Below, piece after piece: positions 1-28,081 of a stretch of DNA of 28,214 bases; positions within the stretch are counted from its first letter, which is position 1; the number at the start of each line of letters is the position of its first letter. The translations under genes were made by a program, and so were the position numbers. Origin of the DNA: a virus (Duplodnaviria > Heunggongvirae > Uroviricota > Caudoviricetes); the IMG/VR virus record IMGVR_UViG_2657244961_000001; one strand, given 5' to 3'. A model generated the notes under the pieces. It was not told the DNA's origin and searched no databases. It was given only the letters and a program-made list of their open reading frames with translations.

Positions 1-138
1 CTCCAGTGGTTCCGTGTTGGTGATGTGATTTACGTCATGACGGGGATGACACCCGCACAAGGCCGCATGACTGAAATCCTTTCTGACGAATTTATCCGGG
101 CGCAAAAACAGGCGGAGGTAAACAATGGAAAACAATGA
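1..138 (+). CDS. 3' end of an upstream early-region gene (partial, hypothetical protein)
   Basis: Only frame open from position 1; ends at TGA 136-138; translation LQWFRVGDVIYVMTGMTPAQGRMTEILSDEFIRAQKQAEVNNGKQ. Confidence 0.35.
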   Translation, partial: LQWFRVGDVIYVMTGMTPAQGRMTEILSDEFIRAQKQAEVNNGKQ

Positions 139-307
139 AACATCGTATTCGTGGCTGGGGACATTTACCACTGTGAAGCAGGAATGTCCGACCTGCGGTA
201 ATGAAAACCCTGAATATCTGAAAGAGTGCCCTCATTGTGGTGGGCAGAAATGCAACCACTGCGATATGGGCGATGACACGGCGTGCATGAATTGTGAAGG
301 TGAGTGA
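125..307 (+). CDS. small Cys-rich protein (four CxxC motifs, putative zinc ribbon), hypothetical early protein
   Basis: ATG at 125 preceded by GGAGG at about 114-118; 60 aa with CPTC, CPHC, CNHC, CMNC. Confidence 0.5.
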   Translation: MENNETSYSWLGTFTTVKQECPTCGNENPEYLKECPHCGGQKCNHCDMGDDTACMNCEGE

Positions 308-308
308 T

Positions 309-617
309 ATGAATAATGGTGTATTTTCAAAATCAGAAGAGCTTGCCGCCCTGCTGATTGCCGGTGGTTTGCCGAAAAAAGAAGTGCATGACTTTGTGAA
401 TTTTGTATATGAGACGTCTCATGAAAAAGCTATTGATGAGGTCATGGCGTACCGGTTTGGCATTATTGCTGAGTCACTGAGTCCTCACTGGATTATTGAA
501 AATCTCCGCGCTATTGCTGATGGCAACGATAAATCAGCAGCCGTTGCTGCACTGGATGTGTTACGGCAAATGAGTCTGAAATTTTATCCTGAATTTATTC
601 TGAGGGCCGCAAAATGA
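309..617 (+). CDS. hypothetical early protein (about 103 aa)
   Basis: ATG at 309 preceded by AGGTGAG; an in-frame GTG at 294 is an alternative start; stop overlaps next start (ATGA at 614-617). Confidence 0.5.
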   Translation: MNNGVFSKSEELAALLIAGGLPKKEVHDFVNFVYETSHEKAIDEVMAYRFGIIAESLSPHWIIENLRAIADGNDKSAAVAALDVLRQMSLKFYPEFILRAAK

Positions 618-916
618 ACAATGAAGATAAATTTACTCCCCTTAATATTGATAACGTCATGGCTGAAAAAGGGATGCTGGAACGTGTTCGCGCTATCGTT
701 GAATATGGTATTAAGCATAATCTCACCGCCAGAGAAGTCCGTGACATTATCAACCGCGAAATGAATCGTCTGGAAACAGTAGTGGCACTGCAAAATGAAA
801 CAGCCCGCGAGGAGTACATCCGCCGCAGGCTGGGGTTATCAGACCAGGATATTGTTACTGACGCTCATGTGTTTGAGGCTTTTGAGATCCGTCAGCATCT
901 GGGTCTAACGAACTGA
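614..916 (+). CDS. hypothetical early protein (100 aa)
   Basis: ATG at 614 preceded by GAGGG; six-frame ORF 614..916. Confidence 0.5.
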   Translation: MNNEDKFTPLNIDNVMAEKGMLERVRAIVEYGIKHNLTAREVRDIINREMNRLETVVALQNETAREEYIRRRLGLSDQDIVTDAHVFEAFEIRQHLGLTN

Positions 917-1121
917 TAATGTCTTCCATGATCTTTGACAGTTGCATGTTTTCGCGGCGGCTTGTTCTTATTGCAGGCGCATCTTTTAAAATCTCTGCTG
1001 AAGAGCTGAAAATGGCTTGGCCCTCTTCTGCAGTGATGATCGCCTTCTTCACCAGAAGGCGCACCAGTGCTGATGCAATCGCATAACCTGCAACATCATA
1101 AGGTTGTACATTATTTTCCAT
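855..1121 (-). CDS. hypothetical small protein (88 aa) on the opposite strand to the early operon
   Basis: Minus-strand ATG (complement of 1119-1121) preceded by GAGAGGA 4 nt upstream; fills a 274-bp gap (917-1190) with no plausible + strand ORF; 3' end overlaps 614..916 convergently. Confidence 0.35.
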   Translation of the reverse strand: MENNVQPYDVAGYAIASALVRLLVKKAIITAEEGQAIFSSSAEILKDAPAIRTSRRENMQLSKIMEDIISSLDPDADGSQKPQTHERQ

Positions 1122-1190
1122 AAAATCCTCTCTGATTGATGTGTAAATTCAGGCGGTGTTGCAGCACCGCCTCTTTCCGGAGGTACGATC

Positions 1191-1742
1191 ATGAGTCGCA
1201 CATCCCTGATTAAATTAATCCATGTCGCCCGTCGGGAGCTACAACTCGACGATGACACTTACCGCGCTTTTCTGATGCAGAACACGGGCAAAATCAGTTG
1301 CCGCGAGCTGACGGTTACGCAACTGGAACAGGTGCTCGATGCCATGAAAGAACGCGGCTTTAAAAAGCTGAATAAACATCCACGTCGCCGCTTTAAGGAA
1401 CATGTCACGCCCCGCGAGAAGGTGTATAAAATTTGGCAGCAGATGGCAGAAGACGGTTTTATTACCGATGGCGGTGATGTGGCGCTGGATAAATATGTTC
1501 AGCGCCTGACCGCGAAACGCAACGGCGGACAGGGTGTTTCCACACTGGCGTGGTGTCACGGAGAATCGTTGCAGGTTGTGCTTGAAACCCTGAAACAGTG
1601 GCACATCCGCTGTATTCGTGAAGCCTTTTCCCGTCACGGGCTTCCGTTGCCGGTCAGTCCGTCCGGGCGTGAACTGCGCGGCTATGATGCCATGACGGCG
1701 GCTTATGCCCATGCCAGAAAGACACGGAGGATGGCACAATGA
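1191..1742 (+). CDS. gemA: GemA-like protein (Mu gp16 family)
   Basis: 183 aa, ATG preceded by GGAGG; size and position immediately upstream of mor match Mu GemA as I recall it. Confidence 0.75.
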   Translation: MSRTSLIKLIHVARRELQLDDDTYRAFLMQNTGKISCRELTVTQLEQVLDAMKERGFKKLNKHPRRRFKEHVTPREKVYKIWQQMAEDGFITDGGDVALDKYVQRLTAKRNGGQGVSTLAWCHGESLQVVLETLKQWHIRCIREAFSRHGLPLPVSPSGRELRGYDAMTAAYAHARKTRRMAQ

Positions 1743-2128
1743 CGGAAGATTTATTTGGTGATTTGCAGGATGACACCATCCTGGCACATCTTGACAATCC
1801 CGCCGAGGATACGTCACGCTTTCCGGCACTGCTGGCGGAGCTGAACGATTTACTACGCGGGGAATTGTCCCGGCTGGGTGTTGATCCGGCCCATTCACTG
1901 GAGATTGTTGTGGCTATCTGTAAGCATCTGGGCGGCGGTCAGGTCTACATTCCACGCGGTCAGGTTCTGGACTCGCTGATTCGGGATTTGCGTATCTGGA
2001 ATGATTTTAACGGTCGCAACGTCAGCGAACTGACCACCCGTTATGGTGTCACTTTCAATACGGTTTACAAGGCCATTCGCCGGATGCGACGGCTGAAATA
2101 CCGCCAGTACCAGCCCTCACTTCTGTAA
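1739..2128 (+). CDS. mor: Mor-like transcription activator (Mor/C family)
   Basis: 129 aa, start overlaps gemA stop (ATGA); sequence MTEDLFGDLQDD... recognised as Mor-like; followed by a terminator hairpin. Confidence 0.75.
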   Translation: MTEDLFGDLQDDTILAHLDNPAEDTSRFPALLAELNDLLRGELSRLGVDPAHSLEIVVAICKHLGGGQVYIPRGQVLDSLIRDLRIWNDFNGRNVSELTTRYGVTFNTVYKAIRRMRRLKYRQYQPSLL

Positions 2129-7779: not shown

Positions 7780-9317
7780 TGGGCCGTATTCTGGATATTT
7801 CCGGGCAGCCGTTTGATTTTGACGATGAAATGCAGACCCGCAGCGATGAGCTGGCAATGGTCATGAAGCGCACGCAGGAGCATCCTTCCAGTGGTGTGAC
7901 GCCGAACCGGGCCGCGCAGATGCTGCGTGATGCCGAACGCGGTGATCTGACAGCACAGGCTGACCTGGCCTTTGATATGGAAGAAAAGGACACCCACCTT
8001 TTTTCCGAACTGAGCAAGCGCCGCCTTGCCATTCAGGCGCTGGAATGGCGCATCGCTCCGGCACGTGATGCCAGCGCACAGGAGAAAAAAGACGCTGACA
8101 TGCTGAATGAATATCTGCATGATGCGGCGTGGTTTGAAGATGCCCTGTTTGATGCCGGTGATGCCATTCTCAAGGGCTATTCCATGCAGGAGATTGAATG
8201 GGGCTGGCTGGGGAAAATGCGCGTGCCGGTAGTGCTGCATCATCGCGATCCGGCGCTGTTCTGCGCGAACCCCGACAATCTGAACGAATTACGCCTGCGT
8301 GATGCGTCTTATCACGGGCTGGAGCTGCAACCGTTCGGCTGGTTTATGCACCGGGCCAAATCCCGCACCGGGTACGTTGGCACCAATGGCCTTGTGCGCA
8401 CGCTTATCTGGCCTTTTATTTTTAAAAACTATTCCGTGCGTGATTTTGCAGAGTTTCTGGAAATTTACGGACTCCCCATGCGCGTCGGTAAATATCCGAC
8501 CGGCTCCACGAACCGTGAGAAAGCCACGCTGATGCAGGCCGTGATGGATATCGGGCGACGTGCCGGTGGCATTATTCCGATGGGGATGACGCTGGATTTT
8601 CAGAGCGCCGCAGATGGTCAGTCAGACCCCTTTATGGCGATGATTGGCTGGGCAGAAAAAGCGATTTCAAAAGCCATTCTGGGCGGCACCCTGACCACAG
8701 AGGCTGGCGATAAAGGTGCACGGTCGCTGGGTGAAGTGCATGATGAGGTTCGCCGGGAAATCCGTAACGCGGATGTGGGCCAGCTTGCCCGCAGTATTAA
8801 CCGTGACCTGATTTATCCCCTGCTGGCACTGAACAGTGACAGCACCATTGATATTAACCGCCTGCCGGGCATTGTATTTGATACCAGTGAAGCGGGTGAT
8901 ATTACGGCACTGTCTGACGCCATTCCGAAACTGGCGGCGGGAATGCGTATTCCGGTCTCCTGGATACAGGAAAAACTCCATATTCCACAGCCGGTCGGTG
9001 ACGAAGCCGTGTTTACTGCTCAACCGGTTGTCCCGGATAACGGTCCGCAGAAAGAAGCCGCATTATCCGCTGATGATATCCCGCAGGAGGATGATATCGA
9101 CCGGATGGGCGTTTCACCGGAAGACTGGCAGCGTTCGGTTGATCCACTGCTGAAACCCGTCATTCTTTCTGTGCTGAAAGATGGCCCGGAAGCCGCCATG
9201 AACAAAGCCGCTTCATTATATCCGCAGATGGATGATGCAGAACTTATCGACATGCTGACCCGTGCCATTTTTGTTGCCGATATATGGGGGCGTCTGGATG
9301 CCGCAGCAGACCATTGA
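7779..9317 (+). CDS. portal protein (Mu gp29-like)
   Basis: 512 aa; TAATG overlap with terminase; GAGGGGG upstream. Confidence 0.85.
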   Translation: MGRILDISGQPFDFDDEMQTRSDELAMVMKRTQEHPSSGVTPNRAAQMLRDAERGDLTAQADLAFDMEEKDTHLFSELSKRRLAIQALEWRIAPARDASAQEKKDADMLNEYLHDAAWFEDALFDAGDAILKGYSMQEIEWGWLGKMRVPVVLHHRDPALFCANPDNLNELRLRDASYHGLELQPFGWFMHRAKSRTGYVGTNGLVRTLIWPFIFKNYSVRDFAEFLEIYGLPMRVGKYPTGSTNREKATLMQAVMDIGRRAGGIIPMGMTLDFQSAADGQSDPFMAMIGWAEKAISKAILGGTLTTEAGDKGARSLGEVHDEVRREIRNADVGQLARSINRDLIYPLLALNSDSTIDINRLPGIVFDTSEAGDITALSDAIPKLAAGMRIPVSWIQEKLHIPQPVGDEAVFTAQPVVPDNGPQKEAALSADDIPQEDDIDRMGVSPEDWQRSVDPLLKPVILSVLKDGPEAAMNKAASLYPQMDDAELIDMLTRAIFVADIWGRLDAAADH

Positions 9318-26090: not shown

Positions 26091-26618
26091 ATGATGCACC
26101 TGAAAAATATTAAGGCCGGGAATCCGAAAACACCGGAACAATACCAGCTAACTAAAAAAGCGGGCGTGGTATGGCTCTTTTGTGAAGATGGCAAAAACTG
26201 GTATGAGGAACAAAAGAATTTTCAGCCAGACACCATAAAAATTGCTTACGATGAGAACAACATCATCGTTGCTGTCAGTAAAGACGTTTCAACTATTAAT
26301 CCTGAAGGGCTAAGCATAGTTGAAGTTCCTGATATTACGGCAAATCGTCGCGCAGACAATAACGGAAAATGGATGTTTCTGGATGGTAAAGTAGTAAAGA
26401 GGGAATATACAGAACAGGAACTGCAACAACAGGCCGAATCACAAAAGGCCGCGTTACTTTCCGAAGCGGAAAGCGTTATTCAGCCACTGGAGCGCGCTGT
26501 CAGGCTGAATATGGCAACAGATGAGGAACGTACACGACTGGAAGCCTGGGAACGCTACAGCGTTCTGGTCAGCCGCGTGGATACGGCAAAGCCAGAATGG
26601 CCACAAAAACCAGAGTAA
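26091..26618 (+). CDS. U: tail fibre assembly protein U
   Basis: ATG one nt after S stop; N-terminus [30 protein letters not shown]...[10 protein letters not shown] nearly identical to the N-terminus of the inverted U' copy. Confidence 0.85.
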
Positions 26619-26622
26619 AATT

Positions 26623-26642
26623 AAGGCCCGATAGCGGGCCTT
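26623..26642. terminator. bidirectional rho-independent terminator between convergent U and U'
   Basis: AAGGCCCG-atag-CGGGCCTT perfect 8-bp stem, flanked by A/T-rich sequence on both sides. Confidence 0.6.
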
Positions 26643-26645
26643 CTC

Positions 26646-27179
26646 TCATTCTGGTTGTTCGGGAAACGTTACTGGCAGGCTGGAGGTGTCTGTAGATTCG
26701 ACTTTCTGCGCATAGAGCATCCACTCGATTAATTTTTGTTTATTCTCGTCTGAAATGATACCCAGCCGTAGCTGTGAGTCCCATAGCTGGGTTTTATCCC
26801 TGACAAGTTGCAACAGGCTTTGTTTTTCATTCTCTGCCTGCTGCCTCTGTTCTTCCTCGGTATAAGTTCGCTTTATCACTACGCCATCTTTGAACATCCA
26901 TTTACCCGAAATGTCAGCACGGCGATTTGCAGTAATGTCAGCAACCTCAACAACGCTTAAACCTTCTGGATTTATTGTAGATACGTCTTTATCTATAGCC
27001 ACAATAATTCCATCTGATGTGTAAGCAATTTTTATAGTGTCATCCTGAAAGTTCTTTTGTTCCTCATACCAGTTTTTATCGTCCTCAGAATACAACCAGA
27101 CAACACCGAATTGTCGCGTCAATTCATATTGTTCAACAGTTTTTGGATTTCCGGATCTGATGTTTTTCAAATGCTGCAT
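26646..27179 (-). CDS. tail fibre assembly protein U' (alternative cassette, inverted)
   Basis: 177 aa on - strand; conserved N-terminus with U, divergent C-terminus. Confidence 0.8.
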
Positions 27180-27181
27180 AA

Positions 27182-28081
27182 TTAAATACTTCCCGCGTTA
27201 TACCAAGTGCCATTGATACAATACTGCACAGGTCTTGCCTGAGTTGTATCAATAAGTTCGTCCTTATTTGAGTTGATTGAGGCAGTAACAACATAACCAG
27301 ATTTATCGTTCCAACCAGGACCATTCCATGTTTGCACTGACGATTTTGTACCTAATCGAATACCTGTAATAAATCGTGAATTACATTCTGCTTTGGTATA
27401 TGCACCAACATCTCCCGCTGATGGCTTACGTGTTGTAGTGTAAAATTCCGACCAGTCGGCTTCAAAGCCATAACCGTCACGCGCAGAACGATAATAAATA
27501 CCGCCGTTCTTATAATTCACGCGGAACTGAACAGCCGGACAACTACCAGCTCCCATATAAAAATGAAGAATTAACGTAGATGCTCCACCAATATTTGCGT
27601 TATAAACCCCGCTAATTGAGTTCCATCCAACAGCTTTGTCATTTCCAACTGTGCTTCCTGTCTGCCCTAAAGCAAATGCAGGTTGTTGATTTTTCGTGTT
27701 GTAGTCTCGTCGCCAGCCAGGAGCGTAAGCATCACCATGATTGATATAAGTGAATTGAGCGTTAGTAATTCCGCCACCGCTGGACGTGCTCGGCGTGGTA
27801 ACGCGTATGGTCATTGCGCCGCGAGTGCCAATAACTTCCACCACAGCACCTGCAAGACAAATATTCCCGCAACCTGTATCTGTAATGACCTTATTATTTG
27901 TATAAGCCCATGAGCCTTTGCACATCCAGTAAGGATGGTTAAATGCTCCCTGACTCTCCAGCCACGAAATAAATTGCGCGGTTGTCCAGACCTGACTATC
28001 GCCACCAATATTCAGCCATGCGCTATATGCGCGGCAGGGGCACTGTTGCAAAGTTAGCGATGAGGCAGCCTTTTGTCTTAT
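27182..28081 (-). CDS. alternative tail fibre C-terminal cassette S' (open frame with no ATG or ribosome-binding site of its own)
   Basis: Frame open on - strand from 28081 to the stop at 27182-27184; C-terminus ...[33 protein letters not shown] parallels S ...[33 protein letters not shown]; the track's start at 28051 is a TTG. Confidence 0.6.

Follow-up and report, generated by a model that had tools for sequence, protein, structure and literature searches.

Gene 15 of phage Mu, a small gene that reads leftward against the rightward early operon, is very probably a genuine protein-coding gene and is best explained as an accessory gene in a short leftward unit of its own, possibly of the moron type and expressed from the prophage. 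We studied it in a 28,214-nucleotide (nt) stretch of Caudoviricetes DNA (IMG/VR record IMGVR_UViG_2657244961_000001; hereafter the window), which by DNA alignment is a Mu/SfMu-type prophage: positions 600-1300 are 99.3% identical to Shigella phage SfMu, 98.0% identical to phage Mu, and 100% identical to a chromosomal prophage of Escherichia coli O78:H4 APEC E19057. Overall, the analysis confirms a gene that was already known and tidies up its description. What it adds is evidence for the minus strand as the coding one, a covarying and strand-specific terminator, a homologue in phage D108, and a hot spot of exchangeable cassettes upstream of gemA.

An initial, sequence-only reading of the window had proposed an 88-codon minus-strand open reading frame (ORF) starting at 1121, and the ORF is there, with its ATG at 1121 and its end at 855. 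The Shine-Dalgarno (SD) sequence claimed for it was likewise found, GAGAGGA at 1132..1126 with a spacer of 4 nt (TTTT) to the ATG. Purine-rich, SD-like motifs were recognized by eye in the alignment 4-10 nt before the start in other lineages, GAGGA in the type represented by locus L008 (L numbers denote the loci compared), GAAGG in the Salmonella type, and AAGGA in the D108 type. The proposed overlap with the 3' end of ORF 614..916, the gene 14 homologue, amounts to the last 62 nt of that gene (855-916), and overlaps with gene 14 of 53-74 nt recur across the gp15- and D108-type lineages checked. A protein family search, one of the checks suggested at the outset, aligned the product to PHROG 8747 over its full length (1-88/88, E 1.3e-60), and the protein is 93-99% identical to the representatives of the E. 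coli cluster.

In the corresponding DNA of Mu and SfMu, the same ORF is Mup15 and ACQ86_gp16, respectively. RefSeq Mu (NC_000929) annotates Mup15/gp15 on the minus strand at 7896..8162, exactly this ORF (NP_050619); SfMu is likewise annotated, and PGAP records the gene as WP_021578945.1 in the APEC E19057 prophage. The Mu and SfMu proteins (88 amino acids, 93-99% identical) share position and orientation with ours, and nothing substantive differs. An identical layout, on the opposite strand between gene 14 and gemA, is seen in SfMu, in E. coli prophages, and in Salmonella and E. coli contigs, and a longer version of the ORF, F-134, is carried by the 1991 Mu left-end record. By these alignments, the minus-strand ORF is the long-annotated Mu gene 15 and so no new gene. 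RefSeq has no other leftward ORF within the Mu early region, and our literature search found no paper on the function of the gene 15 product, gp15.

Over this stretch, the public RefSeq and updated GenBank annotations of the Mu reference genome disagree, the former having the minus-strand gp15 and the latter the plus-strand Mu_54. The length of the minus-strand ORF is not in itself beyond chance, because the window is rich in minus-strand ORFs of 150-365 codons that are spurious and lie antisense to plus-strand genes (e.g., 1239..1898, antisense to gemA-mor), and the credibility of gene 15 comes from conservation. When 1.84 billion representatives were searched exhaustively with HMMER, only six matches to the protein were returned; apart from near-identical E. 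coli proteins, they include three diverged homologues of 86-90 amino acids at 51, 49, and 45% amino acid identity. Two further profile searches added only near relatives to the family, and no homologue emerged from a scan that took a single genome from each species. When the same locus was examined in related Mu-like prophages, as had been suggested, the diverged homologues all proved to be antisense and divergent from the GemA gene at a distance of 69-74 nt; all overlap the 3' end of a gene 14-like ORF, except for one copy truncated by an IS256 element, and their hosts are Mu-like prophages of E. coli and Salmonella.

Scoring of both strands gave the same answer. In six diverged loci, the minus frame alone is stop-free, each of the other five frames carrying one to seven stops. 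The ratio of nonsynonymous to synonymous substitution rates (dN/dS) between lineages is 0.13-0.37, and in most pairs substitutions are fewest at the second codon position, intermediate at the first, and most frequent at the third. The antisense gene posited in the sequence-only reading is thus in all likelihood a real coding gene. That reading had also described the stretch as a gap without a credible plus-strand ORF; a 55-codon plus-strand ORF does exist, at 919..1086, so the gap is not literal, but this ORF fails the comparative tests described below. A conserved RNA structure, named as an explanation that would displace the gene, was not matched: Rfam and tRNA scans yielded nothing that explains the stretch, only a single chance match of 23.6 bits to a herpesvirus snoRNA, inside gemA. 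The comparative evidence argues for the RefSeq minus-strand annotation as the right one and against the updated GenBank plus-strand ORF, and favors restoring gene 15 to the annotation.

A few observations on these sequences may be recorded here. One of the six HMMER matches, a 1438-amino-acid repeat protein (P0005) with 12 matching stretches, was considered as a gene 15 homologue and judged spurious. In a contig of Salmonella enterica serovar Aberdeen (L018, 3236-4444), the gp15 homologue is interrupted at its 3' end by an IS256-family element (Transposase_mut), which has replaced the C terminus of the encoded product (P0007). Within the gene 15 coding sequence of the window lie a perfect 8-bp inverted repeat with a 5-nt loop (CGCCTTCT/AGAAGGCG, 1041-1061) and a 15-nt, 87% inverted repeat at 991-1037, neither followed by a T run.

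Gene 15 highly likely has an intrinsic terminator of its own on the minus strand. The stem-loop (832..801, 32 nt) begins 22 nt past the gene 15 stop, antisense within the coding sequence of gene 14, whose codons ~63-73 house it. With a folding free energy of -20.3 kcal/mol, it is by our criteria the strongest of the seven terminator-like sites on both strands of the window, and a TransTermHP terminator in the updated GenBank record AF083977.1 (Mu 7839..7873) spans it. The L008, Salmonella, D108, and L055 lineages have an equivalent hairpin and T run, each built on a different stem sequence. In an ungapped alignment of five lineages, 93.8% of cells pair in the minus-strand RNA versus 80.0% on the plus strand, and slid controls pair at 35-57%; compensatory double changes occur at three stem pairs. 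Plus-strand pairing is lower because ten G·U wobbles turn into A·C mismatches, and this bias, together with the U tract, points to a structure specific to the leftward transcript. With an SD sequence, an ORF, and a terminator, the locus has the makings of a leftward transcription unit, of which the promoter is the missing part. Our literature search found no strand-specific transcriptome, RNA-seq, or Term-seq study of Mu.

The 8-bp inverted repeat reported between the two divergent starts is perfect (AGGCGGTG/CACCGCCT, 1151-1158/1165-1172), and a repeat search extends it to 11 nt at 91%. Its assignment to the small ORF did not hold. The hairpin is kept in Mu-like phages without a minus-strand gene (vB_YpM_3, PhiR68_1, L034, and L058), and the run of C and T that follows it is always on the plus-strand side, immediately 5' of the gemA SD, with up to eight Ts (TTTTTTTT in L018). 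For both reasons, it appears to be an element of the gemA leader and not of gene 15. The stem is nearly invariant and the loop variable (TTGCAG, TTGCCG, CTGTCA, or TGATAG), with the outer G-C pair becoming A-T in PhiR68_1 and G·T in L055, and the hairpin may act as a partial plus-strand terminator or as a stabilizer of RNA ends. AF083977.1 annotates a "semi-early promoter" at about positions 1110-1176 of the window (the record's reference is PMID 9454718). Among 35 unique gemA sequences, synonymous diversity is lower over codons 1-60 (0.12-0.20; window 1191-1370) than over codons 100-160 (0.25-0.47). An embedded element, for instance a leftward promoter, might account for the difference, as might mosaic recombination, and the signal is too unspecific for a promoter call.

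Comparison of near relatives indicates that the slot upstream of gemA is a replaceable cassette site of enterobacterial Mu-like phages and that gene 15 is dispensable and diversifies rapidly. Yersinia phages vB_YpM_3 and vB_YpM_23 and E. coli JCKP02 lack a 223-nt segment that in the window is flanked by the direct repeat TGAT (914-917 and 1137-1140), and their matches to the window cover 69% in two pieces. With this segment, gene 15 loses its SD, its start, and its first 68 codons, but the terminator lies outside and is retained, and we therefore read the shorter form as a deletion derivative. In all three carriers of the deletion, a 98%-identical gene 14 has outlasted gene 15, and in vB_YpM_3 gemA follows gene 14 after 51 nt. 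A second, independent loss of the cassette is found in IMG/VR locus L035 (~1183-1431), where gene 15 is reduced to its five opening codons (MENNV), next to which a larger deletion extends back as far as the gp13-like gene.

Exchange of the cassette is evident in phage D108 (L005, NC_013594), which is not homologous to the window from within gene 14 to the hairpin and whose homology resumes at the left edge of the hairpin. The 376-nt annotated gap between its gene 14 and gemA contains an unannotated 119-amino-acid minus-strand ORF (1611-1970; phrog_38610, E 8e-83) with the same start distance from gemA, its own SD, and a minus-strand terminator. Direct BLASTP of gp15 against this ORF was not significant. 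The two are joined by profiles: phrog_32893 is matched by both, an 80-amino-acid ORF of the L055 type (P0013) that matches phrog_38610 as well as phrog_32893 bridges them, and hhalign pairs gp15 residues 3-40 with D108 residues 29-66 (E 6.5e-6, probability 85%). By these matches, the D108 ORF is a remote homologue of Mu gp15. The D108 ORF and P0013 resemble gene 15 in slot, orientation, SD, minus-strand terminator within gene 14, and a start 64-70 nt from gemA, and the three proteins share an N-terminal core of ~38 residues. The D108 product differs from gp15 in a 28-residue acidic N-terminal extension, and their C-terminal halves are unrelated.

In a survey of Mu-like loci from IMG/VR (47 loci, not independent of one another), the slot holds a minus-strand gene in 28, a gp15 remnant in one, and no minus-strand gene in 18, the plus-strand genes of the last group abutting gemA. 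The 28 occupants comprise 14 of gp15 types, 2 of the D108 type, 1 of the 80-amino-acid type, and 11 that are DUF2513-like. The slot is occupied by gp15, of which there are two E. coli subtypes and a Salmonella subtype, by remote homologues, by the unrelated DUF2513-like gene, or by nothing. The DUF2513-like gene encodes 134-138 amino acids (phrog_585; DUF2513 match sub-threshold at E 4e-4) and starts 31 nt from gemA; homology between it and gp15 was considered and rejected (hhalign probability 1.8%). In these loci, both divergent SD sequences lie inside one palindrome (CTCATTCCTTAATATGAG), and the GC-rich hairpin is absent.

The gene 15 protein is predicted to be a small, acidic helical bundle of which the first ~70 residues are conserved. 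It has a mass of 9.7 kDa and an isoelectric point (pI) of 5.0, the pI ranging from 4.3 to 6.2 across types. AlphaFold2 models helices at residues 8-25 and 31-46 with confidence (pLDDT) scores of 84-92; the helices beyond these are weaker, and the tail is disordered. Conservation falls in residues ~3-65 (M-x-N-x2-Q-x-YDVAGY-x-[IV]AS-x-L-x2-LLV-x-K-x-[IL]IT-x2-EG...), and the C-terminal ~20 residues, read from gene 14 antisense, are variable. The motif L-x2-LL-x2-KG-(I/L)-IT-x2-EG-x2-I sits on a helix-turn-helix (HTH) hairpin, as in the SHOCT and SHOCT-like domains (PF20612 and PF22746). Relatives of gp15 give SHOCT-like matches over residues 3-40 (E 0.0014-0.16), all below gathering thresholds, at 12.6-18.6 bits versus cut-offs of 24-27; the window protein itself has no Pfam match, and the usual carriers of SHOCT domains are larger proteins, to which they are appended C-terminally. 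We take the motif as a lead toward oligomerization, not as family membership.

How such a unit might work can be sketched from its placement. Set in reverse between gene 14 and gemA, within an early operon that runs rightward, it would be a leftward unit that converges on the strong early promoter Pe and stands back-to-back with the gem operon. Because it converges on Pe transcription, gene 15 would be transcribed mainly from the repressed prophage, from a promoter that may lie in, or to the right of, the hairpin and the gemA 5' region. The gem operon is constitutively expressed in lysogens, according to the passage of PMC3820752 that cites Paolozzi and Ghelardini (1992). Gp15 might then be a protein-binding, moron-type factor interacting with host or phage, with exclusion, counter-defense, or host modulation as candidate functions, perhaps binding as an oligomer through the SHOCT-like helix-turn-helix motif. 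A prophage-expressed accessory role of this kind is plausible, and we advance it tentatively. In a bolder version, which we think somewhat unlikely, gp15, the D108 ORF, and P0013 would form a superfamily representing a new counter-defense or superinfection-exclusion family, carried in leftward prophage-expressed cassettes at a diversity hot spot upstream of gemA and binding a host or phage protein. The terminator co-encoded antisense in gene 14 would then be a rare case of a structure maintained by covariation inside another reading frame. If the cassette site does encode prophage-expressed host-interaction proteins, it would be a new accessory hot spot of the Mu family.

Small accessory genes of this kind are familiar from lambdoid phages as morons, among them bor and lom of lambda and the morons of HK97 and HK022. 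Like these, and like the accessory "regions of genomic plasticity" that Mu-like phages of Pseudomonas carry (PMC4378225), gene 15 is small, dispensable, and present or absent between near-identical phages. It also shares with them a terminator of its own and an orientation independent of the surrounding operon. It differs from them in that no promoter was identified and in that its composition is not distinct from that of its left neighbor. The moron proposed in the sequence-only reading therefore survives in part, with presence or absence across the 223-nt indel, cassette swaps, and its own SD and terminator on the one side and the missing promoter on the other. For the more specific suggestion of immunity or anti-defense cargo there is no support from Pfam, NCBIfam, or PADLOC, in which no immunity, defense, or anti-defense family was matched.

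Several findings count against the account given here, at one step or another. As to the gene itself, the updated GenBank Mu record omits it and annotates Mu_54 on the plus strand at 7960..8127, and the ratio of nonsynonymous to synonymous polymorphism (pN/pS) cannot alone tell the minus frame from the mirror plus frame. As to the leftward unit, the covariation of the terminator comes from five lineages only, and scans for a minus-strand sigma-70 promoter in four lineages, by consensus and by position weight matrix, gave nothing above background or conserved in position; the absence is weak evidence, because the same scans also miss the annotated plus-strand promoter of AF083977.1. The cassette has no clear foreign compositional signature, with a GC content of 44.3% next to 45.5% in gene 14 and 53.8% in gemA. 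As to function, sequence searches of Pfam, NCBIfam, PADLOC, and PDB gave no significant match for the protein, fold searches returned only itself or generic helical bundles, and the literature search found no transcript, protein, or phenotype data for gp15. In PADLOC-DB 2.0, no family was matched at E<=10 by gp15, the D108 ORF, P0006, or P0008.

Other explanations of the locus bear on these same data. The leftward RNA, or the act of transcribing it, might be what is functional, with the ORF secondary: it would damp or process leaky early transcripts before gemA-mor and, together with the hairpin at 1151-1172, insulate gem/mor. The convergent overlap with gene 14 (53-74 nt for the ORF and ~120 nt for the transcript), kept in the gp15- and D108-type lineages checked, would fit, as would the placement of the terminator within gene 14, the plus-strand terminator-like hairpin immediately ahead of gemA, and the low-level Pe and Pe* transcription in Mu lysogens described in PMC3820752. 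A pure RNA role would, however, leave unexplained the purifying selection over ~65 codons and the conserved start and SD, and both unrelated DUF2513-like cassettes and cassette-less phages exist, the latter deposited as isolated phages; we consider this reading unlikely. Gp15 might instead be a small DNA-binding regulator of the divergent gem promoter or of early read-through, acting perhaps at the dyad 1151-1172. The Mor-binding dyad that overlaps the early terminator downstream of mor would be its analogue. A divergent start 69 nt away from that of gemA, and a perfect dyad in the intervening DNA, are what such a regulator might call for, as are the modeled two-helix core of gp15 and the presence of a DUF2513-like (winged-helix-type, sub-threshold) gene in the same slot elsewhere. 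Yet phages with no minus-strand gene, and those with the unrelated D108-type allele, conserve the dyad equally. The protein is acidic, with a pI of 4.3-6.2 across types, and no HTH or other DNA-binding family is matched; we regard a regulator as quite improbable.

The sequence-only reading had mentioned toxin-antitoxin-type cargo; a pairing of gene 14 with gene 15 that is toxin-antitoxin-like or obligate in some other way is very improbable. The gp15, D108-type, and L055-type alleles are each paired with their own gene 14-like allele and share sequence with it, but physical overlap and the embedded terminator force such co-variation. The genes are convergent and overlapping and are not co-transcribed, unlike the co-directional, bicistronic genes of type II toxin-antitoxin systems; neither matches a toxin, antitoxin, or defense model in Pfam, PHROG, PADLOC, or NCBIfam, and gene 15 is lost alone, gene 14 persisting without it in the three deletion carriers. 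Scarcely tenable, finally, is the view that there is no minus-strand gene at all and that ORF 919..1086 (Mu_54) codes or the stretch is non-coding. It is the reading of the updated GenBank annotation, and the plus frame does show a low pN/pS of 0.46-0.65. This low apparent value arises because the ORF is the mirror frame of gene 15, with which it shares third codon positions, so that it inherits the gene 15 pattern. In L015 and L018, loci of the Salmonella lineage, the ORF is interrupted by an internal stop; its ATG is not conserved in the L008 type, and it has neither a PHROG family (best E 0.13) nor a counterpart in the D108 cassette. It would also leave the minus-strand terminator and SD unexplained, and no Rfam family or tRNA match supports a non-coding stretch.

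Table 1. Features of the gene 15 locus; positions are those of the window, except where the last column names other loci.
Feature	Position	Strand	Basis or remark
gp13-like zinc-ribbon ORF	125-307	+	Early operon
Gene 14 homologue, 100 amino acids	614..916	+	PHROG 6075; convergent neighbor of gene 15
Intrinsic terminator of gene 15 unit	791..832	-	Stem-loop 832..801, T run 800..791 (TTTCATTTTG)
Gene 15 (Mup15/gp15 homologue), 88 amino acids	855..1121	-	ORF, PHROG 8747, conservation
223-nt segment absent from vB_YpM_3, vB_YpM_23, and E. coli JCKP02	918..1140		Alignment
55-codon ATG ORF (Mu_54 of AF083977.1)	919..1086	+	Judged not a gene
Shine-Dalgarno sequence of gene 15, GAGAGGA	1126..1132	-	4 nt (TTTT) ahead of ATG 1121; read from sequence
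GC-rich hairpin GGCGGTG-N6-CACCGCC	1151..1172	+	Followed by C/T run, then gemA SD
gemA	1191..1742	+	Pfam GemA, E 2e-31; start 69 nt from gene 15 start, divergent
mor	1739-2128		Downstream of gemA
DUF2513-like cassette	~1054/1066-1470	-	L023-L027, L039, L040, L042, L046, L050, L062

Two further features of the window lie outside the cassette itself. Between the gp13-like zinc-ribbon ORF and gene 14 stands an extra plus-strand gene of 107 amino acids (294-617; phrog_1988), which is present in SfMu and absent from Mu, whose homology to the window begins at 611. Toward the other end, two minus-strand terminator-like hairpins, at 26447-26485 and 26612-26652, adjoin the minus-strand ORFs 26646..27179 and 27182..28051, which are presumably tail-fiber genes of an inverted G segment.

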